A stretch of DNA of 64,000 bases from an uncultured delta proteobacterium (lineage in GTDB: Bacteria > Desulfobacterota > RBG-13-43-22), in assembly GCA_963711835.1 (NCBI GenBank), contig CAVQFQ010000004.1:352001-416000 (forward strand). The letters are read 5' to 3'. Position numbers and translations under genes: made by a program. Shown piece after piece: positions 860 through 50,348 of this stretch. The number at the start of each line of letters is the position of its first letter. Within the stretch, counting starts at the first letter, position 1. The notes below the pieces were generated by a model. It did no database searches, was not told the DNA's origin, and was given only the letters and a program-made list of their open reading frames with translations.

Positions 860-894
860 GGGACGTTCGTGCAGAGATTGCTTGGGGGCCTATA
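860..894 (+). repeat. ~35-bp direct repeat, copy 1 (GGGACGTTCGTGCAGAGATTGCTTG...)
   Basis: 25 bp identical to 1595-1619, extending with 2 mismatches; the two copies flank the methyltransferase. Confidence 0.9.
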
Positions 895-916
895 AGAAAT
901 AGGCCGCATTAGGGCT

Positions 917-1591: not shown

Positions 1592-1594
1592 AGC

Positions 1595-32414: not shown

Positions 32415-34565
32415 ATGATCCGCATCAATACCATCATCGATCAGATCTTGTCCTATTGGCCCCAGGCCAATATCGATCTGATCGAAAAAGCCTATGTCTT
32501 CTCGGCCAAAGTGCACGAGGGGCAGGTCCGGCTTTCCGGTGAAGCCTACCTTTCTCATCCCCTGGAAGTGGCCTGGCTGCTGACCCAGATGAATATGGAC
32601 CTGATTACGATTGCCGCCGGCCTGCTCCACGATACCATTGAGGACACCCTGGCCACCCCGGAAATGATCAGAGAAAAATTCGGCCCCGAGGTCCTCGGCA
32701 TCGTCAACGGGGTCACCAAAATAAGCGCCATTCATTTCCAGAGCCAGGAGGAAAGGCAGGCCGAAAATATCCGCAAGATGATCCTGGCCATGTCCGACGA
32801 TATTCGGGTGATCCTGGTCAAGCTGGCCGACCGCCTGCACAACCTGCGGACCCTGGGCTATCATCCCCTTGAGAAACAAAGGAACATCGCCCAGGAAACC
32901 CTCGATATTTACGCCCCGCTTGCTGCCCGACTGGGCATGCATCGTATCCAATCCGAACTGGAAGACCTCTGCCTTTATTATCTCGAACCGGAGGCTTACC
33001 AGATCATCAAAGCAGGCGTGGCCAGCAACCGGGAGGAGCGGGAGCGCACCATTCGGGAAGTCAAAGAAATCCTCCAGAAAAAAATGGACTCGGAGGGACT
33101 TTCGGCCCGGGTGGAGGGCAGACCCAAGCATTTTTACAGCATCTACCGAAAAACCATCACCCAGAACCTCGATATCAGCCAGTTGTATGATCTGATTGCC
33201 TTTCGGGTCATCGTCAAAGAGGTGGCCGAATGCTACGAGGCCCTGGGTCATATCCACTCCCTTTGGAAGCCTATTCCCGGAAAATTTAAAGACTACGTCA
33301 GCCTGCCCAAGGCCAACCACTATCAATCCCTGCACACCAAAGTGATCGGCCCGGTCGGAGAACGGATCGAGATCCAGATTCGGACCGAGGAGATGCACCG
33401 GGCAGCCGAAGAAGGGATCGCTTCCCACTGGCAATACAAGGAAGGCCAGTCCCCGGATGAAACCGACGCCAAAAAATTTAGCTGGGTGCGCCAGCTCCTC
33501 GAATCCCAGAAGGAAGTCAAAGACCCTAAGGAGTTTCTGGAATCGGTCCGGATTGATCTCTTTCCCGACGAAGTCTACGTATTTACCCCCGCGGGGGACG
33601 TCAAGATGTTGCCCAAGGGATCCACCCCCATTGATTTTGCCTATGCCATCCACAGCGATGTGGGACACCACTGCACCGGGGCCCGGGTCAATAAAAAAAT
33701 GGTCCCCTTGCGTCATGTCCTGCAACACGGCGACCTGGTGGAAGTCATCACGTCAGCCGGACACCTGCCCAGTAAGGATTGGTTGAAGATCGTCAAAACG
33801 TCTAAGGCCAAAAACCGGATCAGGCAGTGGATCAAGACCGAGGAACGAAAACGCAGTATTGATATCGGCAAGGATTTATTGGAAAAGGAAATCCGCAAGA
33901 GTCCGCTGAATCTGGCCCAGCAGATGAAGGGCGAAGCCTTGCTGCAGGTCGCTCAGGATCTTTCGTTTCAACGGCTGGAGGACCTTTTGGCCGGCATCGG
34001 CTTCGGTAAAATTTCACCCCGGCAGATCATAAACCGCCTGCTGCCGAAGGAGGAGGCCGAAGAGAAAAAAGAAGCCCCAGGCCCCCCCCTGATTCGGAAA
34101 AAACAGGGGAAGAAACAGGGGGGGGTCTTGATTAAGGGGATTCATGACGTCATGACCCGCTTTGGCAAATGCTGCAACCCGCTTCCCGGCGATCCCATTC
34201 TGGGCTTTATTACCCGAGGCCGGGGCATTACCGTACACGCCCGGGCCTGCCCCCAGGCCGCCCTGGAAGACCCGGAGAGGCTGGTGGAGGTCCAGTGGGA
34301 TTTGTCCGAGAAGCAGTTCTATCCGGTCAAGATTGAAATTTGGTCCAACGACAAAAAAGGGATGCTGGCCGAGGTCAGCAGCACCATCGCCTCGGCCGAG
34401 TCCAACATCCTAAAGGCGGACGTCTTAACGACTACCGACAGGAAGGGTTATCTCCAATTTATCATCGAAGTGACGGACACCCGCCATTTACAAACCGTCA
34501 TGTCCAGCCTGAAAAAAATCAAAGGCGTCCTGACCGTCACCCGTTCCTTCGAAAAGCTGGTCTAA
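32415..34565 (+). CDS. relA: Bifunctional (p)ppGpp synthetase/hydrolase (RelA/SpoT family)
   Basis: HD motif LLHDTIED, KLADRLHN, YQSLHT, EIQIRT; TGS and ACT domains. Confidence 0.96.
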   Translation: MIRINTIIDQILSYWPQANIDLIEKAYVFSAKVHEGQVRLSGEAYLSHPLEVAWLLTQMNMDLITIAAGLLHDTIEDTLATPEMIREKFGPEVLGIVNGVTKISAIHFQSQEERQAENIRKMILAMSDDIRVILVKLADRLHNLRTLGYHPLEKQRNIAQETLDIYAPLAARLGMHRIQSELEDLCLYYLEPEAYQIIKAGVASNREERERTIREVKEILQKKMDSEGLSARVEGRPKHFYSIYRKTITQNLDISQLYDLIAFRVIVKEVAECYEALGHIHSLWKPIPGKFKDYVSLPKANHYQSLHTKVIGPVGERIEIQIRTEEMHRAAEEGIASHWQYKEGQSPDETDAKKFSWVRQLLESQKEVKDPKEFLESVRIDLFPDEVYVFTPAGDVKMLPKGSTPIDFAYAIHSDVGHHCTGARVNKKMVPLRHVLQHGDLVEVITSAGHLPSKDWLKIVKTSKAKNRIRQWIKTEERKRSIDIGKDLLEKEIRKSPLNLAQQMKGEALLQVAQDLSFQRLEDLLAGIGFGKISPRQIINRLLPKEEAEEKKEAPGPPLIRKKQGKKQGGVLIKGIHDVMTRFGKCCNPLPGDPILGFITRGRGITVHARACPQAALEDPERLVEVQWDLSEKQFYPVKIEIWSNDKKGMLAEVSSTIASAESNILKADVLTTTDRKGYLQFIIEVTDTRHLQTVMSSLKKIKGVLTVTRSFEKLV

Positions 34566-34591
34566 AAGAAGGCCCCATGACCTTAGCGGAA
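34460..34591 (+). repeat. relA 3'-end direct repeat, left copy (attL-like)
   Basis: ~132 bp, about 90% identical by eye to 43652-43783. Confidence 0.9.
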
Positions 34592-34637
34592 ATTCCAGGG
34601 ACCGCCTCCCCTGCTCGTCGAACGTCATCTCCACCGG

Positions 34638-35645
34638 ATGACCATCACCCTCAATCGTCCCCACCTTATTAATGCCCTTTCCTTGGAGATGATCCGGGAT
34701 TTTCAAATCGCCCTGGATGAGGCTGAAAACGAAGCCGACCTTCAGTTTGTGCTGCTCCTGGGGAATGGAGCCAGGGGATTTTGTGCCGGAGGCGACCTGA
34801 GGGCCCTGGCGGAGGCGGTAAGACGAAAAGATTTTGAAGAGGCCGATCGGTTTTTTAAGCAGGAATATGCCCTGGATTTGAGTATCCATCGCTTTTCCAA
34901 ACCCATCATTGTCCTGGCCGACGGGATTACCATGGGAGGCGGGCTGGGGCTGAGCGCCGGTGCGGATATCGTAGTCGCCACTGAAAACTCCCGCATGGCC
35001 ATGCCTGAAACCCAAATTGGCTTTTTCCCTGATGTCGGCGCCAGCCGCTGGCTCTTTGACAAGTGCCCCGGCGGCTATCCGGAATTCCTGGGACTGACGG
35101 GCTATGAATTGATCGGGGCAGAATGTGTCCGGGTCGGGCTGGCATCGGTTCTGGTTCAGGCCGGCCGCTTGGCGAAAGTCAGGGAAAAATTGGAGGGTTT
35201 TTCGGGAAGGTTGGCCAAGGATAAAAAAGAAGCCGTATTGCAGCTTTGGGATCTTATCAACCCATTTGTTGACCCGGTTATTACACAAAGGCCGGAAATG
35301 GATCGCTGGGTGGCCGCCCATTTTTCGGGGAAGAAATCTCTTCAAAAGATCAAGGCCTCTCTATCGCAAGACCCTTTACACCATCCCTTAAGTCTCGATG
35401 CCCTCCAGCGTTTAGAGGAACGCTCCCCGACGGCCCTGGTCCTGACCCTGGAACTGCTTCGCCTCAATCAAAGGCGCCCTTTGGAGGAGGCTTTCGCCGT
35501 AGAAGCCGGGGCGGCCCATTTTATCATCCAACACCCCGACTACCTGGAAGGCATTCGGGCCCGCCTCCTGGATCGGGACAACCGTCCCCGCTGGCAACCC
35601 TCCCGAATAGAAGAAGTGCCGCCCCTGAAGAAAATTTTTTTATAA
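34638..35645 (+). CDS. Enoyl-CoA hydratase/3-hydroxyisobutyryl-CoA hydrolase family protein
   Basis: ITLNRP..INAL, FCAGGDL, GITMGGG, AMPETQIGFFPDVG, EGIRARLLDRD..PRW. Confidence 0.9.
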   Translation: MTITLNRPHLINALSLEMIRDFQIALDEAENEADLQFVLLLGNGARGFCAGGDLRALAEAVRRKDFEEADRFFKQEYALDLSIHRFSKPIIVLADGITMGGGLGLSAGADIVVATENSRMAMPETQIGFFPDVGASRWLFDKCPGGYPEFLGLTGYELIGAECVRVGLASVLVQAGRLAKVREKLEGFSGRLAKDKKEAVLQLWDLINPFVDPVITQRPEMDRWVAAHFSGKKSLQKIKASLSQDPLHHPLSLDALQRLEERSPTALVLTLELLRLNQRRPLEEAFAVEAGAAHFIIQHPDYLEGIRARLLDRDNRPRWQPSRIEEVPPLKKIFL

Positions 35646-35860
35646 TATTTTTGCCCGGCCGACACTGGCCAGATCAGCCCCCTTTCACAAGGCGAAAAAT
35701 ACTCAGTGTCTCTAAGATCCCAGGTCCTCCCGAACAGGTCCATCCGGATATCTGGTACCCTATCCTCCCCATTTAAAGGCTCAGCAAGGCAGTCCAAATA
35801 AGTTCACTCAGCAACAACGTTCCCCTCCGACTATTATGGGTCTGATTGGGTTGTATTCTA

Positions 35861-36220
35861 TTATTTCTTGTCTTTCTTTCCCTCGGATTTGGTCTTCTTC
35901 TCCGATTTTTCTTTTTCCCCTTTCTTTCCCTGCACTTCTACTTTGGCCTCTTTCCTTGATTCTTTCTTGGCGTTCTTCCCAGATGCCAGCTTTTCAGCCT
36001 TCGCTTGCGCCAGATCCAGGTCTTGTTTCTCCTGATCGGCAATGCGGGCCACCCGAAAATCAGCTTTTCTCACTTCAGCCTTCAGCTTTCGTACTATAAC
36101 ATTTTTCTTGATATCGTCGTTCTTGAGCCCTTTCTCCTTCAGAAAAGCCCGCTGGGCGTCAAGATTTTTCAGGGCACTCTTCTTTTGATTTTCCACGTTG
36201 ATCTTGGCTCTAATATCCAT
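35861..36220 (-). CDS. Lysine-rich hypothetical protein
   Basis: 119-aa ORF with RBS GGAGGG; helical, highly charged. Confidence 0.65.
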   Translation of the reverse strand: MDIRAKINVENQKKSALKNLDAQRAFLKEKGLKNDDIKKNVIVRKLKAEVRKADFRVARIADQEKQDLDLAQAKAEKLASGKNAKKESRKEAKVEVQGKKGEKEKSEKKTKSEGKKDKK

Positions 36221-36516
36221 TCAGTTCCCTCCTTCAATAGAAATAGTGTTTTAATTTATTCAATCAATTTAACCTGCTGAACATGATGGCGAAAGTATTG
36301 GCATAAGGCAAGTTGTAGATCCCGAGCTATTCGAGGGAGGTCCGCCCCTGACCTGATCCGGGGGAATCCAGGGAATTTATGTTTACCTCGATGTTGCAAA
36401 AGCCGAGGATGCTTAAGAATTTTCTTTGATGGGAAGAGTATAAGGCAAGAAAAAGACCGGGGCAAGGAGAAAAGCAGGTCGAAAGTTAAGGGGACGAAGG
36501 ACGTATTCTTCTCCAT

Positions 36517-36640
36517 TCATGCAGGAATCAAAAAACCTTCTTCGGGCCGGGGTGGCCTGGTCTAACGATTCGATCCTTTCGGGCTCTCTTCGGGCCATAC
36601 AATACCAATTCAACTAATTTAAGAACGTCCCGGTCTCCAT
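36517..36640 (-). repeat. Array unit 1: GAGACCGGGACGTTC boundary + diverged NERD-gene 5' stub
   Basis: ATG 36598 gives MARREPERIESLDQATP..., which aligns with MARMHPEDIEGLESATE of the other copies. Confidence 0.7.
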
Positions 36641-36756
36641 TTAATTTTTCCCATAGTCCCCTTGGTCTGATTCCAGATACCGATTAACAAGTAATGCAAC
36701 TTAGAACCAACATCCCACCCTACGACCTGCGTTATATTTCGGAGCGGAGCTCCGTT

Positions 36757-37137
36757 TTAGTCTACTACCTCAATATCAGTGTCCGTTTGATATTCCCTTA
36801 TCCGGTTTTTCTGAATAATCCAGAGTTTCCCTTGAATATCTTTTTCCCCCAGGGCAACCAATAGGGTCCGGCAAAGAATGAGCAAATCGCTATAGCTTGG
36901 GCGGGAGAAGGCGAAAAACCGCAATCCCATAATATGATTTGGAGGAAAAAGTAAAGGATTGGCAAAATCCAGATCCAACGTAACCATACATCGTTTTTCG
37001 GATTGGCAGACGGAAACAACTTTTTTATCAGGAGACCCGGCCATCCCCTGGCTGATCACCGATTCGGTGTTGTGTCCGGCCTGACGAAATATTTCCGCCG
37101 CCGCCTTGCTAAGATTTTCATCCAGTTTTAACTTCAT
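36757..37137 (-). CDS. DUF5615 family PIN-like toxin (internal segment appears doubly frameshifted)
   Basis: MKLKLDENL, VTLDLDF; the expected YGIAVFRL reads in a shifted frame. Confidence 0.8.
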   Translation of the reverse strand: MKLKLDENLSKAAAEIFRQAGHNTESVISQGMAGSPDKKVVSVCQSEKRCMVTLDLDFANPLLFPPNHIMGLRFFAFSRPSYSDLLILCRTLLVALGEKDIQGKLWIIQKNRIREYQTDTDIEVVD

Positions 37138-37385
37138 TGCCGAACCTCTATGGGATATTCAAAGTAGCGTTCGCGTGCCATCTCCGCCCCATAGGCAATG
37201 CAGGCCAGGATATCCTCTTCCTCCAAGTCATATTCCTTCATGATTTCTTCGATTTTCATTCCGCCGGCCAGGAAGTCAAGGATCAACGACACCCAAATTC
37301 TCCGGCCACGGATACAGGGCTTTCCAAAGCAAATCTCGGGATGGATGGTAATTCTTGAAAGCAGTTCTTCCTTAGTCATGATCAT
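37134..37385 (-). CDS. DUF433 family antitoxin
   Basis: RITIHPEICFGKPCIRGRRI...EDILACIAY. Confidence 0.92.
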   Translation of the reverse strand: MIMTKEELLSRITIHPEICFGKPCIRGRRIWVSLILDFLAGGMKIEEIMKEYDLEEEDILACIAYGAEMARERYFEYPIEVRQ

Positions 37386-37494
37386 ACCTCCTCTTCCCGA
37401 ATTTCTTTATCGGAGAAGAAATAGAATTTAATAACAAAACACCGTTTCTGCCGGCCAGGTGTAATAAAACCTCCTCATTTCCTGACTTATCCAA

Positions 37495-37790
37495 ATTATA
37501 ACAGAAAACCGAGGTTATTTCCGAATAATTCTACCGGTTGGCAACCGCTCAGGCAATTCTTCCGCCCGGGCGGCCCGCACCACCGCGGAAGTAGTCAGGC
37601 CGAGGAACCGGGCCACGGCCGCAGCGGGATACCCCATCTCACCCACAGAGGCTCGACTAAACGCTCTTCGGGCTTCAGAAACCTTCCGCTTCCCGGAGGA
37701 AACGAAAAACCTTCCTTTCGCCCTCGGTGGGGCTTTCCAATCCTTCGATATCCTCGGGGTGCATGCGGGCCATGTCAATTTAATTCCACG
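37495..37790 (-). repeat. Array unit 2: NERD stub fused to transposase C-terminal remnant, ending in an extended -10 box
   Basis: ~296 bp, near-identical to 39073-39368. Confidence 0.9.
37515..37697 (-). pseudogene. C-terminal HTH remnant of a Y1/RAYT-like (REP-associated tyrosine) transposase
   Basis: GKRKVSEARRAFSRASVGEMGYPAAAVARFLGLTTSAVVRAA resembles the DnaA-C/TrpR-like tail of deltaproteobacterial RAYTs (recognition from memory). Confidence 0.55.
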
Positions 37791-37891
37791 TATTCAAAAC
37801 CGTCTGGATTCCATCGCCTGTAAATTTGTGCTAAAGGGAGAGGCTGGTCTTTAATTATCTTGAGGATATTTGAAAGCCCGGTCCCACTGCT

Positions 37892-38221
37892 CTAAATTTC
37901 AAGCCAAAGGCGCAAGGAACCGTCCAACTGATTTGCATCATTAAGGGAAAGTTTTCCGAGGGTTTTTAAAATCAGACCACTGTCAATGGTATAAAGGCCC
38001 CTTTTGACAGCCGTGGGAACATTCAGGCCCGAATTCCTCCAGCCCGATAAAACAAATTCTCCAGATAATAACGACAAAAGCCTGCTGGTAAGGGGAACGA
38101 TGAATAAATCTTTGGATTCCTCCTGGGTGCCCACGATAACTGCCGGTCTTACTTTTGAATTTGATAGATCTGAAAAGGGATACCTGACCAGAACAACCGC
38201 AGACTTAGAGAAGTTTGGCAT
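37892..38221 (-). CDS. PemK/MazF family toxin
   Basis: VVLVRYPFSDLSNSKVRPAVIV...VPLTS. Confidence 0.9.
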   Translation of the reverse strand: MPNFSKSAVVLVRYPFSDLSNSKVRPAVIVGTQEESKDLFIVPLTSRLLSLLSGEFVLSGWRNSGLNVPTAVKRGLYTIDSGLILKTLGKLSLNDANQLDGSLRLWLEI

Positions 38222-38405
38222 AGACCTCATCCTCAAGATTATTCCATATCTTATCTAAAGAAGGTTGGCTGACGGTCTGCCAGAATTTTGTGGCGGAATC
38301 ACTCGGGAGGACGGTGACCAAGACCTCTGTACCTTCCGGAAGGTCTGTCTCTTCCAGAAGCACCACTTTCTTTTCACGAACAACGGCTTTGAAGGTACTT
38401 AACAT
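38205..38405 (-). CDS. Antitoxin (AF2212/DUF104-like)
   Basis: MLSTFKAVVREKKVVLLEETDLPEGTEVLVTV; RBS AAGGAG; overlaps the toxin start. Confidence 0.75.
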   Translation of the reverse strand: MLSTFKAVVREKKVVLLEETDLPEGTEVLVTVLPSDSATKFWQTVSQPSLDKIWNNLEDEVYAKLL

Positions 38406-38507
38406 AACTTTCTCCTTAAAATTGTATCGAGCGGTTTCTCTTGCCAAGGTGTTGACCCACAAATAGAGGGATGTCTGTTCGACAACTTCCACGGATTGAA
38501 GTTTATT

Positions 38508-38696
38508 TTAGCCTGTTTTATCTATTTTTGAAAGAACGAAGTCGGGTTCCTTGCCCTGTTCCCCGATGGTTGGCTCATACCAGGCTATGAAATCCCTGTC
38601 TGGCCGGGTCGTTTCTCGAAGAAATCGAAAGACCTTCCGCTCGCCCTCGGTGGCGCTTTCCAGGCCTTCGATATCCTCGGGGTGCATGCGGGCCAT
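38508..38696 (-). pseudogene. Array unit 3: longest 5' stub of a NERD-domain nuclease(-helicase) gene
   Basis: MARMHPEDIEGLESATEGERKVFRFLRETTRPDRDFIAWYEPTIGEQGKEPDFVL; truncated just after the PDF motif. Confidence 0.75.
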
Positions 38697-38704
38697 ATCA
38701 ATTT

Positions 38705-38783
38705 AATTCCACGGAAACAAGAACGTCTCGGTCTCTATGCTAATTTCTTCTGCACTCTCAGAACGAACGTCCCCAATTCCACG
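38705..38783 (-). repeat. Array junction: two GACGTTC motifs 44 nt apart, bracketed by 9-bp direct repeat AATTCCACG
   Basis: Near-identical to 40201-40279. Confidence 0.85.
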
Positions 38784-38784
38784 A

Positions 38785-39042
38785 TTAATCTGCATCTCTA
38801 AGCTCTTTCTCTACCTCATCGGCCGTGTACTGAAAAGGCGAAACTTCAAACCGGGCCAGAGAAAAAATAAAGTCAGCCCTGCTGACCCCGGCTACCTCAG
38901 CGGCCTTTTCCTGGGATATTATTCCCATTTCATACCACTTGACGGCGGCTGCCAGGCGCATTTCGGCCGCAAACTCCGAGGGACTTTTCCTTATGGCGGA
39001 AAAAGCGGTTTCGGGCATATCTATCTGTAAAACAACGGACAT
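38785..39042 (-). CDS. UPF0175 family protein (orphan antitoxin)
   Basis: EMRLAAAVKWYEMGIISQEKAAEVAGVSRADF; RBS GGAGGTGA. Confidence 0.9.
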   Translation of the reverse strand: MSVVLQIDMPETAFSAIRKSPSEFAAEMRLAAAVKWYEMGIISQEKAAEVAGVSRADFIFSLARFEVSPFQYTADEVEKELRDAD

Positions 39043-39072
39043 AAATCACCTCCCATAGCCTGAATAGCCTTG

Positions 39073-39368
39073 ATTATACCAGAAAGCCGAGGTTATTTCC
39101 GAATAATTCTACCCGGTGGGCAACCGGCCAGGCAATTCTTCCGCCCGGGCGGCCTGCACCACCGCGGAAGTAGTCAGGCTGAGGAACCGGGCCACGGCCG
39201 CGCGGGATACCCCATCTCACCCACAGAGGCTCGACTAAACGCTCTTCGGGCTTCAGAAACCTTCCGCTTCCCGGAGGAAACGAAAGACCTTCCTTTCGCC
39301 CTCGGTGGGGCTTTCCAAGCCTTCGATATCCTCGGGGTGCATGCGGGCCATGTCAATTTAATTCCACG
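39073..39368 (-). repeat. Array unit 4: duplicate of 37495-37790 (NERD stub + transposase remnant)
   Basis: Near-identical, with a few substitutions and small indels. Confidence 0.9.
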
Positions 39369-39604
39369 AATTTAAGAACGTCTTTGGTTCCATAAGTTCA
39401 CTCAGTACTTACGTCCCCTCCGTTTCAAAAATCAGGTGAAAAAAGGACCTAACGCAGAAGACTTGGCGAAAACTGGAGTGGGGTGATTTGGGCTGAGGCT
39501 TCATTACCATCACCAACGAATTGGTATGAGAAAAGGGATTGTTGACAGAAGCATCGCGTTCAAGGATAATCACAAAAATGAGCCGTTAAAAAGTGGAGGA
39601 TATT

Positions 39605-39820
39605 ATGAAAGCCGTAAAACGTAAAGTGACGGATATGACAGTAGACGAACTGAAGGGTGTCATCCATGAAGTGATCGCCGAAGACATGGAGGCCTGGCGA
39701 GAAACCTATGAAATCATGGCGGACAGCAAACTCATGAATCAGATCCGACAGGCGGACCGGGACCGGGCAGTCGGCAAAAAAGGCTCCTTCATCGCCTGGG
39801 ACAAGCTGAAAAATGCCTAA
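39605..39820 (+). CDS. Putative antitoxin upstream of RelE
   Basis: RBS GGAGGA; overlaps the toxin start; ETYEIMADSKLMNQIRQA. Confidence 0.75.
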   Translation: MKAVKRKVTDMTVDELKGVIHEVIAEDMEAWRETYEIMADSKLMNQIRQADRDRAVGKKGSFIAWDKLKNA

Positions 39821-40073
39821 GATCATTCTCCATCGGAACGCAGCCAAATTCTACCGGAATGCCGACGAAGTTCTTAAGAACAGAATTGTGAATGCCGTTG
39901 ACGCCATGGCCCGGAATCCCCGCCTGGACGGACCTATCAAGAAATTGAAAGGGGAACTCAAGCACCTGTATCGCTTCCGTATAGGCGATCTGCGCATCCT
40001 GTACGAGATAGACGATTCTGAAGATACCGTATGGGTCAAAACAATCGAATGGAGAGGATCGGCATACAAATGA
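39813..40073 (+). CDS. RelE/ParE family toxin
   Basis: IKKLKGELKHLYRFRIGDLRILYEID...RGSAYK. Confidence 0.92.
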   Translation: MPKIILHRNAAKFYRNADEVLKNRIVNAVDAMARNPRLDGPIKKLKGELKHLYRFRIGDLRILYEIDDSEDTVWVKTIEWRGSAYK

Positions 40074-40112
40074 ATATGCTTGTGTGGGTTAAACCAAGTT
40101 AAAAAGTAAAAT

Positions 40113-40279
40113 GGGAGGAAACGAAAGACCTTCCGTTCGCCCTCGGTGGCGCTTTCCAGGCCTTCGATATCCTCAGGGTGCATGCGGGCCATATCAATTT
40201 AATTCCACGAATTCAAGAACGTCCCAGTCTCTATGCTAATTTCTTCTGCACTCTCGGAACGAACGCCCCCGATTCCACT
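40113..40279 (-). repeat. Array unit 5: junction motifs + NERD stub (ATG 40192)
   Basis: MARMHPEDIEGLESATEGERKVFRFL preceded by the same boundary as 38705-38783. Confidence 0.88.
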
Positions 40280-40298
40280 TTATCCTTTTAAGATTGTA

Positions 40299-41010
40299 TT
40301 ACACACGTAGATCATCCAGGAATTCTGATGGGTTATCGCTGCTTGTAACCAGAAGATGATCCCGGGCACGGGTACAGGCTACGTAAAGCAAGTGGCGCTC
40401 AGTGTCATAGACCTCTTGTAGGTCCGAGTCATCGGCCACCGTTTCGATGCGCGTTTGTGAGGGAATAACCTCGTCGTCGCAGGCCATAACGACAACGGCT
40501 CGGAACTCCATCCCTTTTGCAAGATGCATAGTGCAGATTGCAATATGCCCGCTGGCTGTCTCAACCTTGTCATCGAGTATTTTATAGGGGATTTTAGATT
40601 TCTCCACGGCCGCCCGGGCTCTATCCAGCTCATTTTCAGATCGTACGAATAGGCCGATCTCATGGGGTGCGACTCCTTCGGCTCTTCGATCTTTAAGCCA
40701 CTGTCCGACTGCTTCTATTTCCTCTTTTTTACTAGCGAACGACATGATTATCGGTTCCGGCCCGTTGAATGCCGAAATTGTGCCCCGGCGGTCTTCCAGA
40801 TTACCGTCAACATCGGATAGTTCTGGACCTAAAAGTCGGTCGGCCTGTATTCGTGTCTGGTACGAGCGATGTCCGGTAGTTGATTTGGCAGATCTCCGGG
40901 AGCGCCCGCGGACATCAACGCCGAGAGCTTTCCAGGAAACCGCGTGGAAGATCCGTTTCCCAAGGTCACCGGCAAAGAAAAGACCGTTTGGGCTATTACC
41001 CCCCAGCGCA
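40299..41010 (-). pseudogene. 3' part of a UvrD-like (SF1) helicase gene
   Basis: LFFAGDLGKRIF...TMHLAKGMEFRAV...ERHLLYVACTRAR; N-terminus missing. Confidence 0.8.
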
Positions 41011-41150
41011 GAATCGGCGTGATGAATTCAGCACGACGGCGGCTCTGGATGATTTGCTGGGTCGGCTGGCCCTGGTCATCAAGCTCCCAGTGACAAACCG
41101 GGAAATGGTAGGGAGTTTAGGATCGGTTTTTCAAAAAATCGGTTTTCCAT
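41011..41150 (-). pseudogene. 5' fragment of a type III restriction endonuclease (Res, BPTD_3080-like), frameshifted
   Basis: MENRFFEKPILNS[fs]YHFPVCHWELDDQGQPTQQIIQSRRRAEFITPI. Confidence 0.65.
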
Positions 41151-41353
41151 TTTTATGTTCTCACCGATGATCTATTTTATTAATCGCCTTAGCAAAAACC
41201 TGTAATGTCCTAAAGGTATCGTCCGTAAAATATGTTTTTTTTCTTTTTAGTAACTTACCAATTTCGATCAGCATCGGGACCCGGGAGGTTGGTGCAGGAG
41301 TTGCTTCCTTCAGCTACCATTTCCGGCATCAACAAAAACTCCAGGTCCTTGAA

Positions 41354-41896
41354 TCATTTCCTGCCATATTTGGCCCGGGGCTCCCTGGCCAAAAAACCGA
41401 TTTTCTTTCTGGGTTTAACCGGCGGGGCCATGAGCTGTCTTATCGCTTCAAAAACCACCCGGAACTGGCCATCGTATTTTTTCTCCATCTCCTCAATCTT
41501 CAGCTTTAGCTCCCCATGGGTCGCCAGGATCTCCCTCAGCCGGGTGAAGGTTCTCATAATCTGGATATTGACCATGACGGCCTGCTCGCTGTTTAGAACA
41601 CTTGAGAGCATAGCGACCCCGTTTTCGGTGAAGGCATAAGGGCGATATCTTAAACCTTTTCTATCCGATTTGGAGGTCACAAATTGTGACCTCCAATCAT
41701 TAAACTCTTCCTGGGTCAACTCAAACATGAAGTCATCGGGAAAGCGTTTTAGATTTCTTTTGACCGCCTGTTTTAAAGCCTTTGTCTCCACGCCAGATAG
41801 AACACCCAGATCACGATCAAGCATGACCTTTTTCCCTCTTAGTAGAAGGATTTTACTTTCAATAATTTCCTACGGCACTAACCCTTTTTGTTCCAT
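41354..41896 (-). pseudogene. ORF6N (KilA-N-like) domain protein with in-frame TAG at codon 9
   Basis: [29 protein letters not shown]...[16 protein letters not shown]...[18 protein letters not shown]. Confidence 0.8.
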
Positions 41897-42033
41897 TCAT
41901 TCCCTCGACCTTATCAGGCAGACACATTGATCCCAACCCTAAACGCTCGGGAAGCCTTTTAGCCTTCCGGCTCTCGTGCCAGATCTTCTCCCCCACCCAG
42001 CGTGCCCAGGCCGGCGAGATGCGGTTTGAGCCA

Positions 42034-42369
42034 TTATTTTCTCTTCCTTTTGTTTTTTTGAACTTTTTTATCGCTTACTTCCGGGGACCGATATTGTTCT
42101 TTCGGTTCGGAAGCAAAAAACAAAGAGGATTTTTTCGTAATCAACTTCTCAATTTCCTGATCTGTAAATTTCAGTTGACGAAATACACGCTTGCAATAAA
42201 TCGGATCCAGGGTCTTCTTGCCGGTTTGGACCGGAGCTGAATGTCGCCTTCCTTCAACTACCCTGGCCTATATGGCATGATCGCTGGGTCCTTGACGAAC
42301 AAAAACAGCCCCGCCTTTTTCAAGGATCCTTACCAGTTCCTTACTGGATAAAGACGGAAACTTAGACAT
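42034..42369 (-). pseudogene. HicA-like toxin with in-frame TAG at codon 34 (42268-42270)
   Basis: MSKFPSLSSKELVRILEKGGAVFVRQGPSDHAI*ARVVEG...; overlaps the hicB stop. Confidence 0.75.
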
Positions 42370-42661
42370 AGGATGGGACCTCGTGGATTTCTAACGGCTT
42401 GAGGATAAATCCTTCCTTTGGCTCTTTAACCCAGTCAGGTTCGGTATCCCTTAAAAAATCAATGAAGTCCTCAATCGGCATAGGCTCCAAAACCGTCTCC
42501 GGGTATTCTTTGAGGTCGGAGAGATATAATTCAATGGCTTCCTTCAGGTTTATCTCTACGTCGGCGAGATTATCTCCCCTGGCGGCTACATTCAGTTCCA
42601 AGCACACATCCACGTACTCCAGTTTGCTTTTACGAACAATGGCGGTAAATTTTTGGTGCAT
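42362..42661 (-). CDS. HicB-like antitoxin
   Basis: CLELNVAARGDNLADVEINLKEAIELYL. Confidence 0.8.
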   Translation of the reverse strand: MHQKFTAIVRKSKLEYVDVCLELNVAARGDNLADVEINLKEAIELYLSDLKEYPETVLEPMPIEDFIDFLRDTEPDWVKEPKEGFILKPLEIHEVPSYV

Positions 42662-42728
42662 AATAATCTCCTAACAAACCTTGATTCCCCTTCACTCGAC
42701 GGGAGGGGGTTAGGGGGTAAAAACGGAC

Positions 42729-42804
42729 CCGGGAGGTTGGATGAAATAAAAAGGCCCTAACTTTATGATGAGAAAGGGCCTTTAAGTTTCATCCAACCTC
42801 CCGG
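42729..42804. repeat. 30-bp imperfect inverted repeat with 16-nt spacer
   Basis: CCGGGAGGTTGGATGAAA-TAA-AAAGGCCCT / AGGGCCTTT-AAG-TTTCATCCAACCTCCCGG. Confidence 0.8.
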
Positions 42805-43140
42805 TTTAAGGTTAAAGGGAAAATAAAAGGAACTTTAAGAAGATAGGCTTGAAATAGCATATATCAGGCCTGTTGTCAATGTAAGGAAACTGGACCTTGG
42901 TCTGCGCTGGTTGATCGAATTTAACATCGGGACATGGCCCCCTTCGCTGACCTCGGTGATTTCCACCAGGGCCTGGTGGAGGGCCCCAGGGTCAGATAAA
43001 CCAGTTCAATATCCCGGTTGGAGAGGAGCGGGAACATGGCCAGGTTTTAAAATTTTTTTCAAAAAACAAAAAAATTTTTATGAAAGAACTGCCTGGTGGG
43101 TTGGGGAGAGTATTATTGCAGAGTAAAATTTGGGGGGCGT

Positions 43141-43419
43141 TTAATAACAAATGTCGTGGGGGCCGATCTCGATAAGATAGACACTGCCGTCGTCGAGTAT
43201 TTTAAAGACCAGCCTCTCGGAATAACTTATTGAAATAGCATAATAATCACTGAGATTGCCCTTGAGTTTGTGGGTTTTCAAGCCAGGGGCGAAGATATCC
43301 TCCTTAAATAACTTCATTTTTTGCTTAAACCTTTCTCTTTGGGAGTCAGAAAGCCCGACGATATATTTCTTAAACTTTCTATCGAAGGCCGCATCGAAAA
43401 GTATAGATTTAGGCTTCAT
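43141..43419 (-). CDS. RelE/YafQ-like mRNA interferase toxin
   Basis: LKTHKLKGNLSDYYAISISYSERLVF...IGPHDICY. Confidence 0.85.
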   Translation of the reverse strand: MKPKSILFDAAFDRKFKKYIVGLSDSQRERFKQKMKLFKEDIFAPGLKTHKLKGNLSDYYAISISYSERLVFKILDDGSVYLIEIGPHDICY

Positions 43420-43422
43420 GCC

Positions 43423-43605
43423 TTACCCGATCTGTTCGATAAAATTATCCAGACTGACTTTTTTAACCTTCCCGGCTTTTAGGTTTTTTTCGGCCTCGGC
43501 TATCCGGAGCAGGAAATTTTGCCTTTTCACACTCTGATATATTTCCTTGAGGATCCTGTATTCTTCTTTAGGAACAGCCACGGTTTCATTGGCAATTGTA
43601 TCCAC
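43423..43605 (-). CDS. Putative antitoxin
   Basis: 60 aa, RBS AAGGAGG, directly upstream of the toxin. Confidence 0.72.
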   Translation of the reverse strand: MDTIANETVAVPKEEYRILKEIYQSVKRQNFLLRIAEAEKNLKAGKVKKVSLDNFIEQIG

Positions 43606-43651
43606 ACCAACACCTCCTTTCTTCTTTTTAGATGTCTTATGGCTAACAAAA

Positions 43652-43783
43652 TATCATAAAGTGACGGACACCCGCCATTTGCAAACCGTCATGTCCGGCC
43701 TGTAAAAGATCAAAGGCGTCCTGACCGTCACCCATTCCTTCGAAAAATTGGGTCTAAAAGAAAGCCCCATGCCCTTAGCGGAA
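43652..43783 (+). repeat. relA 3'-end direct repeat, degenerate right copy (attR-like)
   Basis: Matches 34460-34591 but has a TAA and an indel in the relA frame. Confidence 0.9.
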
Positions 43784-43795
43784 GTGTCGGATGGG

Positions 43796-45139
43796 CTAAC
43801 CCTCCAGGCCGGCAGCCTTCCCGGATAGAAACCGGGACAGCCCCGGATCCACTCCCCCAACTATTGAATGCCGTATCTCGTTTTCGAGCGTGTTCTCGAC
43901 GGCCGCCTCCTCCGTCAAAGTCAGGGCTTGGTTATAGACGATGATTTCTGCGATGTCGCCGTTAAAGACCCTTAAGGAAAAGTTTAAATTGCCGCCCACC
44001 GAGAGCCGGGACGGCTCGAGATACGTTTGCGAGCAATTGACAGACGATAGCCAGTTGGTCCCGTTCACGGCCGAGAAAAAGCGGGCCGCAGCGAATTCGT
44101 ATCCGAAGGTCAGGACCTGAAACTTAGACGAATCCAATTGTTGAAGCGGGTAGGCATATTGATTCAAGGAAGACCCGTTTTGCTGAACAACAAAATTGCG
44201 GCAATTGGCGTGATTATAATCAATGATATCCGCATAGGTGGCCTGGGTAGCCCCGGGTTTCACCACAATAAAGAGGGTATAATTATTCGCCCCCTGCAAG
44301 ATATTAACGGCGTTGGCCGTAGAGAGGACCGTATGATTGGTGCCGGTGAACCGCACGGCCGGCATATTGTTGGTGGTGGCATTGGCTATCCAGAGCGGTT
44401 GGCTCGAAAGGGCTGAATCGGACTGGACGTTGAATCCATTGCCGCTTTGATCCGCCCAAAGGCTGACGCGATCGCTGCCGTCTTTGGTAATTCCTTTATC
44501 GGCCTGGAGCCAGAAACGTATCCCGGGAGCAGGGGGACTGCCGGTAGCCTTAAAGATGACTGGTAGAAATAATCTCCAAGGTACCAGGGAGGAACCGGCA
44601 GGTATGGTGAGCAAAACGGCCTGGCTTTCTTGAGGCCGGGCCATACCGCCTGAAGTGATAATAATACTGACCGCAGGCCAGACCCCCGGACTGGCCCCGA
44701 TGACCTGACCCGTGCTATTGGGGTCAACCGCCAACATGGCTTCGATGATGTAAAGACCCGGATCGGAGCCGTCAAAAAAAAGGACCGTTTCGAATTCGCC
44801 CAGGGCGTTGCATTGGACCAGGGGGGACAAAGGAATCTGGTTGACGCTCAAGCGAACAAAGCTGTTGGCCGGAAACCCGCTGCCGTGAACCGTAAAATAA
44901 CTGCCCACCCCGCCTGAAGTATAATTGACCGTTAAATTTCTAAGGACGGGTCCGGTTACCTCGTGATCGATCAGATTGCCGGCCCGGTCATATAAATAAC
45001 GAAAGAAGATGCTGTTGCCGTATTCGACCTGGATCAAACGCCCGGCCCGGTCGTAGGTATAAGTGTTCTGAACCGTATCGCCTCGGGCAGCGGTCCAAGG
45101 CAACAATAAAACGATGATTAAGCCCATGATCGGCAGCAT
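43796..45139 (-). CDS. Secreted protein with YD repeats and a LamG/concanavalin-like domain
   Basis: Signal peptide; YTYDRAGRL and YLYDRAGNL; VSLWADQSGNG...FNGDIAEIIVYNQAL. Confidence 0.75.
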   Translation of the reverse strand: MLPIMGLIIVLLLPWTAARGDTVQNTYTYDRAGRLIQVEYGNSIFFRYLYDRAGNLIDHEVTGPVLRNLTVNYTSGGVGSYFTVHGSGFPANSFVRLSVNQIPLSPLVQCNALGEFETVLFFDGSDPGLYIIEAMLAVDPNSTGQVIGASPGVWPAVSIIITSGGMARPQESQAVLLTIPAGSSLVPWRLFLPVIFKATGSPPAPGIRFWLQADKGITKDGSDRVSLWADQSGNGFNVQSDSALSSQPLWIANATTNNMPAVRFTGTNHTVLSTANAVNILQGANNYTLFIVVKPGATQATYADIIDYNHANCRNFVVQQNGSSLNQYAYPLQQLDSSKFQVLTFGYEFAAARFFSAVNGTNWLSSVNCSQTYLEPSRLSVGGNLNFSLRVFNGDIAEIIVYNQALTLTEEAAVENTLENEIRHSIVGGVDPGLSRFLSGKAAGLEG

Positions 45140-45229
45140 GACCGGAGGAGGCCTGATATCCTATTTTTCATAAAATTCTCCTTATTTTCGTCCCTGGGTC
45201 GTAGACGAGGGCTTGTAGACCGGGACATC

Positions 45230-48200
45230 CTACCTGTTAAGCAGCGTTGGATGCCAGGAACCATCACCGAAGGCCTTGGCCCGATCCAACGCATAGTTGA
45301 CAATGTGTGCGTTCGGACCCACCCCGGTGATGAGGTTTAAGCCTTTTCCGATATACTGCATCCCGGCGTTCACAGTCGATCTTATCTTTGGTGGGACGTG
45401 GCTCCACAAGTACTTTTCCTTATACTCGCCCCAGGTTGTCCACTTGTTGTCAAACGAGTCCCAGACTTTACCCTGATCCATGTACCAATCAAAGGCTATA
45501 AGTCCCATAACAAAATACCCCGCCCCTTCTACCAAGGCTGCGCCCCTTCCTCCGGTGGCCGCACCGCCTTTGACCGCTATGTCTTTCTCTATGGCTCCGA
45601 CCCCCTCTTCTGCTACTGTCTCGGTCGTCAGAACCTTTACCTGGCCCCCTTTCGGGATGATCTTTTCCAGCTCTCGCGGGTCATCGATATTATAGGGGTG
45701 GCCTTTGATCAGAGCGACTCCTGGGGGTTCCACGACCAGGACCAACGCCTTACTTTGCGAAGAGCTGTACTCGATGTTGGCGTTGAACTCCGGAAGCGCT
45801 GGCCAAGCCCGGAACTTGCTCCCTGTAAACGAGTTCGCTGGCGCGGGAAAATGCCTCTGGGTGAGTCTCTGAGACGTACGTAACGCCCTGCCGCGTTACG
45901 TTGTAGGTCGGCGAGTCAAAGACTTTACCGTTCCAGCCGTAAATGTCCTCAGTGGGTGGTTTGATGGTGATGATATCAATCGGGTCGACGACCTTTGGAT
46001 AGAAAACTCCCGAGCTCACGTCCAAGCCCCGCGGATCGGTTTTGTTTACCGGGTCGCCACCTACATAACCGTACAGATTGAGACCCGCCGACAGGCCCAA
46101 CGGGTCCTCGGTTATGAACCGCTTGGCTTCAGGGTCGTAGTAGCGCGCCTGCATGTGATAAAGACCGTTCTCGTCGGCCATCACACCATGGGTACCGATG
46201 TACTGAAAAGCGTTGACCAGACTGCCCGAGGCACCCAGCACCTTCCCATAGGGATCGTAGCCGTATGATTTCACTACAGTCTGTGAGGCATCGGTAATCG
46301 CCACGATACTGCCCCGCTCGTCACCATGGTACACCTTTGACAGCCCCCGAGCCGTCGAGGCTGTAAAGAAGCGAGCCTGCATTCTATTGTAGCTCTGGAC
46401 GTTCCCTGATCCGTCGAGGATACAATAGATCGTGCCGCCCTCGCGCACGTAACGCGCCGTCGCGGAGTTAAACGTTTTGACCAAACGGTTGCCTACGCCA
46501 TCGTAGGTGTAGGTGGTGGTGTTCGTCCCGTCGGCGACCGAGACCAGGCGGTTTAGGGCATCGTAGGTGTAGGTGGTGGTAGTACCGCCCAATTCCTTCG
46601 AAATCAGGTTGCCCCGGTCGTCGAAGGTGTAGGTCGTTAGGACGCCGTTGATGTTCGCACTAAGCATACGGTTGATCGGGTCAAAGCTGTAACTTGACTA
46701 CTGAGGGGTCGGGTTGCCGGTTACAGGTTGACTGCCCTGCACGGTGGCGATTTGGCCGGCTGATGTATAGGTATAGGTATAACTCGCAATTACAGTGGCA
46801 GCCGCCTTCTGGTTTACACGGGTAGCAACCCTTCCCGCCGTATCATAGGTGTATAAGGTGCGGGTTCCGTTGGGCAGATTGACTTGGGTTACCCGGTTCA
46901 AGGCGTCGTACTGAAAGGTCGTCTGGTTGCTTCTCCAGTCGGTGATATCCGTCAGCCTTCCGGCAGTATCGTAGGTGTAGGTCAGGGCGTTTCCGCCAGG
47001 GTAGGTGAGGGTTTTTAATCGCCCAGCCGCGGTGTACGAATAGGCCATAACCTTTCCGCTCGGGTCGGTGCGTGTGAGACGACGGCCAAGCAGGTCATAG
47101 GTCATCGTCGTCGTACCGGAGGCGTCGGTGACGATGGCCAGATTCCCCGCAGCGTCGTAGACATAGGTGATGGTCTGACCGGGCAACGCAATGCTTGTCA
47201 GTCGGCTGTCGGCGTCGTAAGCGTAAGTAATCACGGTGGCGTCACGCAAGGTCTTCTGCGTAAGCCTGCCCATTCCATCGTAGACGTAGTTCTCCGCTTT
47301 TCCATTGGGATCGGTTTTCGAAGAGAGGCGGCCGGTGTTGTCGTAGGAGAACGACCATGAATGACCGAGCGGGTCGGTGATGCCTGTCAGTCTACCAGTG
47401 TAACTATAATCGTAAGAGTATTGGACCACGCCCTGATCCGGCAGAGTTGTGGAGATGACGCGGTCCACTTTGTCGTACTGAAAAGTCTGGGTGTTGCCAA
47501 GCGGATCGGTTACGCTGATGACCCTTCCCGCCGCATCGTACAGGGTCGTCCTTGTGTTGCCGAGTGGATCGGTGGTCTGCAGAGGCCGGCCTTCCTCGTC
47601 GAATGTGGTGGTCCACGTATCGCCGTTCTCGTTTTTCACCGAGGTGACGTTGCCGTTTGAGTCGTAACCATAGTAGACATGGTGGCCGAGGGCGTCGACG
47701 ACAGCCGTGGGCCGATTCGATTTGTCGTACTGACGCATAATGGTAACACCATCAGCATCGGTGACACTCACCAGGTTGCCGTCAACATCATAAGAGTACG
47801 TTGTTATGCCGCTGAGAGCGTTCGTCACTTGCGTTGGCCGGTCAGCCCAGTCGTACGTATACGTTGCCATTGCGGCCGTCGGCACGAAGGTGCGGGTGGC
47901 CAGGTTTCCATTGTCGTCATAAGTGAGATGTGAGATATTTCCCAGGGGATCGGTGCGAGTGAGCACGTTGCCGACTTCGTCGTACGTCGTCTGGAATGTT
48001 ATGCCCGAAACAGGAAAGCTGACCTGCGTGGGCTGACCCGCCGCGTTATAAGTAAGGCTGATCTGGGCTCCGGTCGGATCGGTCATTGTCTGTGGCAGTC
48101 CGTTGGCATTGTAGGCAAAACTCCAGTTCTTGCCGTTAAAGTCTAATATTGTCGTAGGTTGACCGCTGGGGTTTACCGAGATGCTCTGACCAGATCCAAG

Positions 48201-50348
48201 GGCGTTTTGCATGGAGGTGAGGTTGCCGTTGGCATCGTACCCGAAGGTGGCAGTGGTATATCCGAGGGGACCTGTTATCGATGTAGGTCGGTTTTGCGCG
48301 TTGAAGGAAAACTGTGCCATGGCGCCGGACCGGTCGCTCGCTAGGTTCGGGTTGTTGTTGGCGTCATAGAGCATCTGCACATTCCCGCCATTCTTGTCGG
48401 TCATGCTGACCAACCGACCCTGGGAGTCTGTGGTAGAGTTGGCCTGGCGTCCTTCGCCATCGGTTACACTCGTCAGGTTGTATGCCAAATCGTAAGTATG
48501 CGTGATAGTGTTTCCGGAAGGCAGAGTGACCTGGGTGGTTGTACCATTCGCATCAACAGTGTACTGGTAGCTTGTAATGTTTCCGGCGCCATCCATTTGC
48601 TGTGTTACACGGCCGGAGGCATCATAGCTGTTGGTCAAGGTTGTCACGCCCTTTGCGTTAACCACGGTAAGAATACGGTGTGAGCTGTCGTAGCCAAAGC
48701 CCCAGGTCTTGCCACGAGGGTCCACGATGCCTGTAAGATTACCCAAGCCGTCGTACTGGAATGAAACCGTGTTGCCAGGCTTTAACGGCGATGTAATCGC
48801 TGTGAGATGCCCGGAAACGTCGTAGGTAAAAATGATCTGCCTCCCTGCAGTGTCGGTGATGTAATCGATCTGGTTCGGTGTTGTCGTTGAATACGTAAAT
48901 GCAATCTGGTTGCCGTTCAGGTCTGAGATAGCCAGCAGTCTGCCGCTTGAGTCGAACTGATAAGCGGTCTTGTCATAGAGTGTGGCCAAGTAGTGGCTTG
49001 GGTCGGGCATGGTGAGTATGACCGGCGTGTTGCAGTTGATAGGTGTAAAATTACCTGAGCCATCGCCGTGGAAGGTCTCTTCATGCCCGTCGCCCCACTT
49101 GATGGTTACGTCGGTGGAGGGTGGCGTTGGCAGCGTGAGCCTGATGTTGTAAGTGTGGGTCCAACCGTACCCCAGGGGGCCGTTGTAAATAGTGTCTAAG
49201 GAGTTATAGTTGGTTGAGAAGGTAAAAGGCAGGAGTCTGCCGGGAAAGCTGAACAGAGGCTTGGAGGTAACATAGTTCCCGAGACCGGCATGCACCGGCT
49301 CTGCGATGAGCGACCTGCCGTCACCATTGCCGAAGTTGCTATTTCGGTTCACGGGCGTGGTGGTAGGCTGGGTGAACGTGACAGTGGCCTGGTTCACCGC
49401 CGTAGCGATTGACGCCGTCACCAGGTCCACTCCCGTCGACCGGGCGAGGCGATCGTGGCTGAGGCAATCCCACTCGAGTCCGTCTGTGCCGAGACCGGGG
49501 TAAGGTGCCGAACTGCGGAGTAAAGTTTACGCCAGACGCCCGACAGGTTGACGCCGGAGTTCTGCTCGAAGACGCGGAGCCGTTAGCGTGCTGGGTGCCG
49601 TCCGCGGGTACACTGGGCGGTACGGGTGTGAACGTCAACACCTCGGTGCCGCCAAATTTGTAGTAGTCATCCGCATCATTGCAAAAACCAATCCCACCGA
49701 CCATGCCGCGGAACGTCGCATTCTCAGTGCTCCGGTAGTCGTGTTGCTTGGGCACGTTGCCCTAAGCGTGACCGTGAAGCTCTGCCCTCGCTTGAACACG
49801 CCCTCCGGCACCATGGTACACGCGCTCAAGTCGGAACATTGGCCCTCTCCGCATGACTCGCAGTAGCAGTGGTCGTTGAGCCGCGGAGATGCAGGCGGTG
49901 TGCTTGTGCCTGCGGTCCAGGCGACGTCACCAGGACTAGGACCGGCACCATGATGGGCATCCGCTTTCGGGCTGTAGTCAAGTAAAGTGAAGCATCCGGA
50001 TGGATAATAGATCGCTACGCCGTCAGTCCCCTGCGCCCTCCATGCGGCGTAGGCGCAGATCCACCCCTGCGCCGGGGCCGAATTAGGCAGGATGGTTGCT
50101 GTGATCGTCACCGTGTCGCCGAGGTTGATTATCTTTGGGCTGATGTTCAGCGTGCCCCAATCCCCCCAAAATAATGCGTTTTGACTGCCCGGCGCCGGGT
50201 CAAGGGCAAAACTATTAGGGCAAGATAAGGCCATCGCTATGGATAGAACTGCTATGGCCGTCAGAATCTTCACTGGAAAAGACCGATGCTTTCTGAAGCC
50301 CTCTTTTTGTGAAGCATTGGTCCTGATCCGATATTTCTGTCTCTCCAT
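45230..50348 (-). pseudogene. Large secreted RHS/YD-repeat protein, disrupted by several frameshifts and one in-frame TAG (46698-46700)
   Basis: Consecutive ORF pieces 49635..50348, 49339..49755, 46698..49430, 45750..46667, 45230..45745; GPLGYGWTH, dozens of YD repeats, core ARYYDP...DPVNKTDPRGL. Confidence 0.85.

Follow-up and report, generated by a model that had tools for sequence, protein, structure and literature searches.

Rows of toxin-antitoxin cassettes between fragments of a NERD-UvrD gene in an uncultured delta proteobacterium

In several described systems, genes or modules alternate with a recurring sequence; these include integrons and clusters of attC sites lacking an integron integrase (CALINs), the complex class 1 integrons associated with ISCR1, IS26 arrays, and gene clusters interspersed with Y1 transposase fragments. 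Here, we compare these systems with an array in a 64,000-nt stretch of the genome of an uncultured delta proteobacterium (hereafter, the window), in which cargo modules alternate with stubs, i.e., 5' fragments of a gene encoding a NERD nuclease and UvrD-type helicase (NERD-UvrD). The DNA directly upstream of a NERD start is termed the leader. The window's own genome, which is 89% complete, is labeled G000, and its contigs C4, C5, C8, etc.; other G numbers denote other genomes, and L numbers denote metagenome contigs. Our favored reading, to which we assign a probability of about 0.6, is that the NERD-UvrD 5' fragments separating the toxin-antitoxin and defense-type cassettes of this row serve as homology arms, through which host recombination adds, removes, and reorders cassettes.

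Like integrons and CALINs, the array is an ordered row of small accessory genes that is rich in toxin-antitoxin pairs and varies among relatives. Unlike them, it has no attC hairpin, no IntI over the cut-off, and no fixed crossover base, and its cargo has its own upstream region and lies in either orientation. The integron integrase model TIGR02249 gave seven partial matches in G000, none of which passed the cut-off; CALINs need no integron integrase in the genome. When the plus strand of six 141-nt junctions was folded in search of an attC or REP (repetitive extragenic palindromic) hairpin, none performed better than shuffles (z from -0.28 to +1.56). Two of these matches are IntI-like C-terminal fragments, at C5:91684-92004 and C5:298848-299072, the second beside a TIRtron (see below) and tRNA-Asp/Val.

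In the ISCR1 model, as given in the available text of two reports (PMC6834847, PMC3575428), aberrant rolling-circle replication produces circles, which homologous recombination rescues by way of a duplicated segment, and partial duplicates of a conserved segment flank the captured genes. The stub arrays show this ISCR-type duplication, since NERD 5' pieces of variable length flank each block and the whole gene stands at the end. They differ in that no integron is present, the repeat is a 5' piece of a host NERD-UvrD gene, and the cargo is of toxin-antitoxin and defense type; moreover, circles belong to the ISCR1 model, whereas joints that go back in the assembled contigs examined here fit circles and reordered arrays alike. 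Among the array open reading frames (ORFs) scanned, we found no IS91-family transposase but only Y1 fragments, in a minority of units. The IS26 arrays and translocatable units outlined in the accessible part of PMC7986276 likewise have directly repeated spacers with one module between them, and a unit consisting of one repeat plus cargo that RecA can resolve or amplify. In contrast to their intact insertion sequence with a DDE transposase, the gene stubs that form the spacers here vary in length and are 75-97% identical, and the transposase-driven targeted route that is a feature of IS26 has no evident counterpart in stub arrays.

TIRtrons and their Y1 transposases (TIRYTs; subclass 2.1 of Quentin et al. 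2018, PMC6006769), described from sequence only in the available portions of that paper and of Di Nocera et al. 2013 (PMC3733652), share with elements found here a transposase with a C-terminal helix-turn-helix and terminal inverted repeats (TIRs) that start with GGGG and are also dispersed singly or in clusters. The ends here differ, reading GGGGACGT, which fits 6 of the 8 positions of the consensus published in 2013, GGGGWSAS. As far as their accessible text extends, the two descriptions hold neither cargo arrays nor NERD stubs, and the TIRtron identity explains the motif, not the array. In the procA clusters of picocyanobacteria (10.1101/2020.03.09.984088), C-terminal fragments of subclass 2.1 transposases are interspersed with a repeated gene family; judged from the available part of that source, this procA/TnpA-REP association offers the nearest parallel to an array of genes containing such transposase fragments. 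The stub array is a member of neither the ISCR1 complex integrons, the IS26 arrays, nor the integrons, and we found no description of NERD-stub arrays in the literature covered, from which most subscription papers and all supplements were absent. The array is real, family-wide, and of an apparently undescribed layout.

Units are exchanged within the NERD stub

The parent gene of the stubs encodes a ~620-aa NERD nuclease plus UvrD-type helicase, and its best match is the PADLOC model C3a187 'NERD+UvrD' (E 1e-81). Our survey gathered 109 NERD 5' pieces, 9 of them full and 91 truncated away from contig ends; the latter fall into 65 junction classes, which were assigned automatically with a partial check by hand.

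If the GGGGACGT motif were a cassette site, cargo should be tied to the preceding leader. We examined the pairs of units that have their whole cargo in common and for which both neighbors were available (n = 3), and all three show the opposite: the upstream leaders differ (identity of 33-49% at -80 to -34 and 55-70% at -33 to -1), while the leaders downstream of the cargo match (83-98% and 100%). In addition, change-point fits place switches in identity at coding nt 20, 26, 44, 46, 72, 92, 126, and 159, i.e., spread over the first ~160 nt of the NERD gene, with many other stub pairs giving a weak change-point or none. In one instance, 15% of the sites preceding nt 159 differ between units 8446 and 10588 of G018, compared with a single site beyond it. 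Throughout the stub alignment, 5' haplotypes track the leader and 3' haplotypes track the cargo. The exchanged unit comprises the 3' part of a stub, the cargo, the leader, and the 5' part of the next stub. Because the cargo moves together with the next leader and the switches in identity fall at scattered points of the stub, the stub rather than the motif is the site of exchange. The proposal of the sequence-only reading, an earlier model-made annotation of the window, that the motif is a cassette boundary thus finds no support in the scattered switches within the NERD coding stub, nor in a two-stub array from another order (G408) that has no such motif.

Variable sites among the stubs of one genome are concentrated at the third codon position (49 versus 16 and 18 at the other two in G018; 40 versus 24 and 18 in G000), and therefore the stubs descend from different working alleles rather than from decay of one local copy. 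Frameshifting indels occur in 36 of 81 stubs, and nine stop codons were counted; some of these are perhaps read errors.

G000 hosts 18 stubs in six clusters, namely the window array, C4:135.8-138.4k, C21:129-132k (beside tRNA-Leu), C21:249-251k, C21:349-355k, and C16:19.3k. The window stub used as a query matched 13 of 20 genomes from the same family and none of 20 from other families. Complete NERD-helicase genes, which the sequence-only reading had suggested as something to look for, are found in relatives directly downstream of an array: G018 has 11 stubs and then a complete 625-aa gene, G012 has 2 stubs followed by a complete 620-aa gene, and G019 has five starts and one internal piece followed by a frameshifted gene. 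The G018 and G019 genes with their downstream flank are 95% identical over 2.6 kb, yet their leaders differ. In G017, the gene follows BREX genes, with no stub within the 20 kb fetched. Across 387 genomes of the phylum outside the family, 100 aa of the full protein as a query matched 10 genomes with one copy each (frames of 613-715 aa), and a 13-row profile matched 13 (twelve frames of 578-715 aa and one of 139 aa). Within the order of G408, 17 of 301 genomes matched, two more having only short frames, possibly at contig edges. G408 itself carries a stub, cargo, a second stub, cargo (AlbA-domain, AbiE), and then a 626-aa NERD gene. Because this array lies in another order, the stub-array layout is not unique to the family, but it is far more expanded there.

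TIRtron ends and the GGGGACGT motif

We identify the GGGGACGT motif with the end repeat of TIRtrons, known elements with an HUH/Y1 transposase, rather than with an attC site. In G000, the inverted ends (~25 bp) of three intact Y1 transposase genes begin with it (C10:57812-58894, C8:125111-126182, and C17:331768-332845), which answers the earlier question of whether intact transposases adjoin the motif elsewhere. PF01797 matches occur at C10, C8, C17, and C5, with HFH and catalytic-Tyr motifs in the translations, and several TIRYT frames with HUH and Tyr motifs are open in G000; the helix-turn-helix was assigned by resemblance to subclass 2.1, not by a profile match. The motif is not confined to the window locus, as G000 holds 102 TIR matches of eight types, compared with none in a shuffled contig. 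Among these end types, A, B, and D (a variant of C) are found again in the window array.

Across 86 leaders, a TIR lies on the NERD strand in 34 and on the other strand in none, leaving 52 without a match; types A, F, and C alone give 15 of 86, which is the less circular figure because leaders had partly served to seed types D and G. Type-A TIRtrons abut NERD at nt 340, 634, and 792 (L088, L087, and L039, respectively), and in G007 a near-complete transposase precedes the same upstream region as that of the window's fused stubs, with other cargo. In 8 of the 65 junction classes, the strict pattern GGGG[AT]C[AG] starts no more than 32 nt from the stub end, where 0.9 would be expected (controls: 1, 0, and 1); for GGGGWSAS, 3 classes compare with an expected 0.4. 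Given this excess near the cut, TIRtron ends probably made some of the junctions, while most junctions show no trace. A looser pattern, found in 12 of 65 classes, was dropped for the strict count, since two of its motifs had been picked from the data.

Short tandem duplications are present at TIR starts. No target-site duplication was seen by eye at the three intact TIRtrons, and no empty site of the C10 TIRtron was found, only its left flank being variable. At C10:57809 (L153:2309), contigs of two metagenome runs match from 3 nt outside the left TIR, with other DNA beyond, and the right flank is conserved in the runs covering it. A general tie between TIRs and toxin genes was rejected as only weak outside the arrays, where 7 of 58 toxin genes lie less than 1 kb from a TIR (random mean 2.7, maximum 9 in 500 draws). 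This weak nearness counts against a central role of the transposase, as does the lack of any of these TIRs in the G408 array.

TIRtrons also occur in other contexts in G000. Mini-TIRtrons of ~280 bp that are 82-87% identical lie at C12:1-273, C12:3428-3714, C19:2681-2966, C19:3961-4240, and C19:7727-8014; these consist of a left end, a transposase 3' piece, and a right end where kept, amounting to about five internally deleted copies. The right TIR of the C17 element (C17:332810-332850) lies inside the open frame of the following gene, presumably lipB. Mostly co-oriented TIR clusters without NERD stubs are found at window 768-1594, C4:320-326k, and C21:78-86k.

Layout of the window array and turnover of its cargo

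The five minus-strand units of boundary motif and NERD stub described in the sequence-only reading are present, with their starts as stated; ParE, UPF0175, PemK, DUF433, and DUF5615 were all confirmed in Pfam. Cargo families are named here by Pfam matches over the cut-off unless called weak, and features lie on the minus strand unless noted. The unit starting at 40192 begins with an outer TIRtron end of type D (40246..40270), a variant of the C-type ends that flank the C17 transposase, and an inner TIR-like motif of type G (40202..40226), 33 nt before the NERD ATG, for which no transposase of its own was found. Its 79-nt stub (40114..40192) is followed by cargo on the plus strand, opposite to the stubs: a putative antitoxin with no family over the cut-off (39593..39820) and a ParE/RelE toxin (39813..40073). 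The next unit has an outer end of type A (39394..39418), the type that flanks the intact C10 transposase, and an 88-nt stub (39264..39351). At a short sequence common to both, this stub meets the frameshifted 3' end, with the helix-turn-helix, of a TIRYT transposase (39096..39263). The cargo of the unit is a UPF0175 gene (38785..39042); the DUF3368 gene that accompanies it in L088 breaks off here after a few codons. The third comprises a type-D end (38750..38774), a stub of 166 nt or 55 codons (38531..38696), and a weakly matching AF2212-like putative antitoxin with a PemK/MazF toxin (37892..38492).

The fourth unit has an 88-nt stub with a degenerate inner motif (37686..37773), a TIRYT transposase 3' end in a block 94% identical to that of the 39351 unit (37515..37685), and a DUF433-DUF5615 (PIN-like) pair (36757..37385). 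The last carries an outer end of type B (36693..36717), as flanks the intact C8 transposase, a type-G inner motif (36608..36632), and an old diverged stub of ~69 nt (36530..36598) that has a close copy at C16:19287. As the earlier reading held, this copy is much more diverged, with 64-72% identity to the four modern stubs, compared with 88.6-97.5% among those four over 79 nt. The Lys-rich hypothetical gene behind the fifth stub (35861..36220) is probably resident rather than cargo, since it resembles hypothetical-protein clusters commonest in Thermodesulfobacteriota and the same diverged stub precedes it in near relatives. Furthermore, stubs 39351 and 37773 each run, at a short common sequence, into the 3' end of a Y1 transposase ahead of their cargo.

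A scan of 33000-45000 for TIRs returned eight matches with at most 5 mismatches in 25, compared with 0-2 matches at a looser limit of 7 in 20 shuffles of the 4.7-kb array. ACGTC pairs at 38723/38767 and 39378/39411 and a further ACGTC at 40219 place the tandem motifs reported earlier correctly to within 2 nt, except that the partner of the 40219 motif, at 40262, reads GGGGGCGTT rather than GACGT. A 9-bp direct repeat had been taken to bracket one junction, and an extra copy of AATTCCACG does lie at 38775, but AATTCCACG belongs to all four modern leaders; this copy need not be a target duplication, because the start of the lost DUF3368 gene meets the TIR flank there. The half-junction noted at 35799-35830 is an orphan type-A TIR at 35800-35824, part of a leader without a stub here (35702..35824). 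In near relatives, this leader is joined to a stub, and a stub is also joined to position 35701.

Cargo turns over among relatives. Its set and order upstream of the full gene vary among G018, G019, and G012, and one row in L075 carries PemK, antitoxin-RelE, and AbiE cassettes that G000 keeps at three separate loci. The contigs of four independent short-read sediment runs contain close kin of window cassettes with other neighbors, several of them ending in stubs. In their new joints, a modern leader comes after DUF5615, ORF6N or a YafQ-type gene adjoins the 36717 TIR region, and position 35701 abuts a stub; two stubs also enclose a new unit of 1845 nt. At such likeness, these joints may stem from other organisms or loci. 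No contig of these runs spans the whole window array. Gene order is thus not fixed, and this turnover, together with units that differ by 2-36%, agrees with the earlier judgment that the array is not a collapsed assembly. Between stubs generally, we found mostly toxin-antitoxin, Abi, and PADLOC-candidate genes, plus unnamed ORFs; the other G000 clusters hold ParE, HigB, PIN, MazE, PemK, HepT with a nucleotidyltransferase, DUF433/DUF5615, and AbiEi/AbiEii. The six stub clusters contain 13 of the 71 toxin-family matches in G000. Lone IS110 and IS630-type elements occur inside or beside some arrays, and one integrase was found among 83 larger ORFs scanned nearby.

Other features lie within or next to the array. 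A short repeat at 36414-36500 has about a dozen further copies in G000, and single-base gaps in DUF5615 at 36902, 36906, and 36934 relative to contigs of three runs reflect either read errors or a locally shifted frame. An unrelated UvrD-like helicase C-terminal fragment marks the upstream edge (40299..40745), followed by a frameshifted 5' piece (41010-41151; DNA copy at C21:252600-252762) of what we take to be a type III restriction-type gene. The ORF6N gene (41282..41884) precedes an inverted type-C TIR, and an ORF6N gene or piece is found upstream of three other G000 arrays. ORF6N 3' ends with such a TIR behind them recur at window 41282-41884, C21:252763, C21:253715, and in L094, in the manner of a second stub family; between the copies lies a DUF3800 gene or a nucleotidyltransferase-HepT pair. 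The 3' end of relA and the start of the next gene are duplicated (34468-34591 and 43659-43783; 91% over 132 nt), the duplicate directly preceding an antitoxin and YafQ-type pair, a second case of a host fragment before a toxin-antitoxin module. An island bounded by this duplicate was considered and rejected, as relA and the enoyl-CoA hydratase gene are not adjacent in G018 or G019, and the near relatives' match to the window stops at 43658. Just past the duplicate, RHS/YD-repeat genes lie in pieces (43796-49430).

Mechanism and competing explanations

In the mechanism that we favor, a new cassette would form once a cut within one NERD copy is connected to DNA from upstream of another NERD gene, the junction lying at a TIRtron end or resulting from a microhomology deletion. 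Recombination between neighboring stubs would then release a one-stub circle, or incoming DNA would pair with a stub, and a single crossover into any stub or full gene would add a unit and leave one more stub, the full NERD gene staying intact and gaining a new leader. Because of its addiction or anti-phage value, the cargo would persist as the rest erodes, and stubs remaining elsewhere in the genome would turn into new landing pads, even once the full gene is lost. The mechanism is most likely a known one, repeat-mediated recombination, acting on an unusual repeat.

Several observations weigh against this homology-arm mechanism. Only three whole-cargo pairs underlie the linkage test, and they are kin rather than independent; in two further pairs, the junction is common to both units, yet the cargo diverges partway and the next leaders do not match. 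The window pair 39351/37773 has the stub and transposase fragment in common with different cargo, and therefore exchange also takes place outside the stub. Mosaic stubs could come from later gene conversion in arrays built otherwise. Growth polarity is inconsistent, the stub adjacent to the full gene being the most similar in G018 (93%) and not in G019 or G012, and tblastn with a relative's protein found no full-length NERD-UvrD gene in the 89%-complete G000. Of the 65 junction classes, 57 lack the strict TIR motif. The mechanism further presumes circles, RecA dependence, and an active transposase, and it does not account for the choice of the NERD gene and of this family.

A possible, though clearly less probable, extension is that TIRYTs cut at their own end repeats in a one-ended, ISCR-like manner, creating NERD-stub/cargo units that host recombination stacks at a NERD-UvrD 5' landing pad. 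The remaining explanations fare worse. In one of two origins put forward by the sequence-only reading, an island family starting with a leader and NERD would have integrated repeatedly in tandem, and later internal deletions would have left the addiction modules in place. Such deletions are observed, including stub-to-transposase deletions at microhomology, arrays adjoin tRNA-Leu and lie near tRNA-Met and tRNA-Ser, and full NERD genes of the family come after BREX or restriction genes. However, this scheme expects cargo tied to the upstream leader, the opposite of what all three whole-cargo pairs display, and the complete gene stands at the downstream end with a changing leader and no common integrase near the arrays, which makes it unlikely. 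The other proposed origin, an integron-like capture with cassettes that extend from one TIR to the next and a trans-acting TIRYT that recombines the TIR sites in single-stranded form, draws on the strand bias of leader TIRs, the open TIRYT frames, the tandem duplications at TIR starts, and the left TIR of the C10 element as a breakpoint in near relatives. We regard it as similarly improbable, given that identity switches in the stub and not at the TIR, that the six junctions folded on the plus strand form no hairpin, that 52 of 86 leaders and the G408 array lack these TIRs, and that toxin genes elsewhere are only weakly near them.

More doubtful still is a dedicated recombinase that would act in trans on the NERD 5' end and provide the gene with a new start, in the manner of SXT/R391 at prfC. 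The layout of displaced 5' piece, cargo, new leader, and restored gene is alike, and stub ends cluster at ~88, 129, 246-254, and 301-306 nt; against this, the switch points are scattered, some NERD pieces lack their first 40-200 nt, the length clusters partly reflect common descent of one junction, no integron integrase in G000 passes the cut-off, and the 83 ORFs scanned near the arrays include one integrase. An artefact of assembling long-read metagenome bins is very improbable: although the frameshifting indels may in part be read errors and contigs of the four runs leave the whole array unspanned, its units are not identical, and short-read contigs of other studies hold single stub-bounded cassettes and a four-stub array (L075).

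To our knowledge, the movement and pile-up of chromosomal toxin-antitoxin pairs without a transposase or attC site are poorly explained. The arrays offer a concrete, testable route, in which a fragment of one host gene is a reusable homology arm. In addition, stubs can serve as a mining marker, whereby unnamed ORFs between them become defense candidates, and the three independent TIRtron-NERD junctions are defined substrates for the TIRYT transposase family. If cutting by TIRYTs combined with a NERD-UvrD landing pad proved true, it would provide the first function for TIRYTs, and the family would possess a recombinase-free, exchangeable pool of toxin-antitoxin and anti-phage cassettes.

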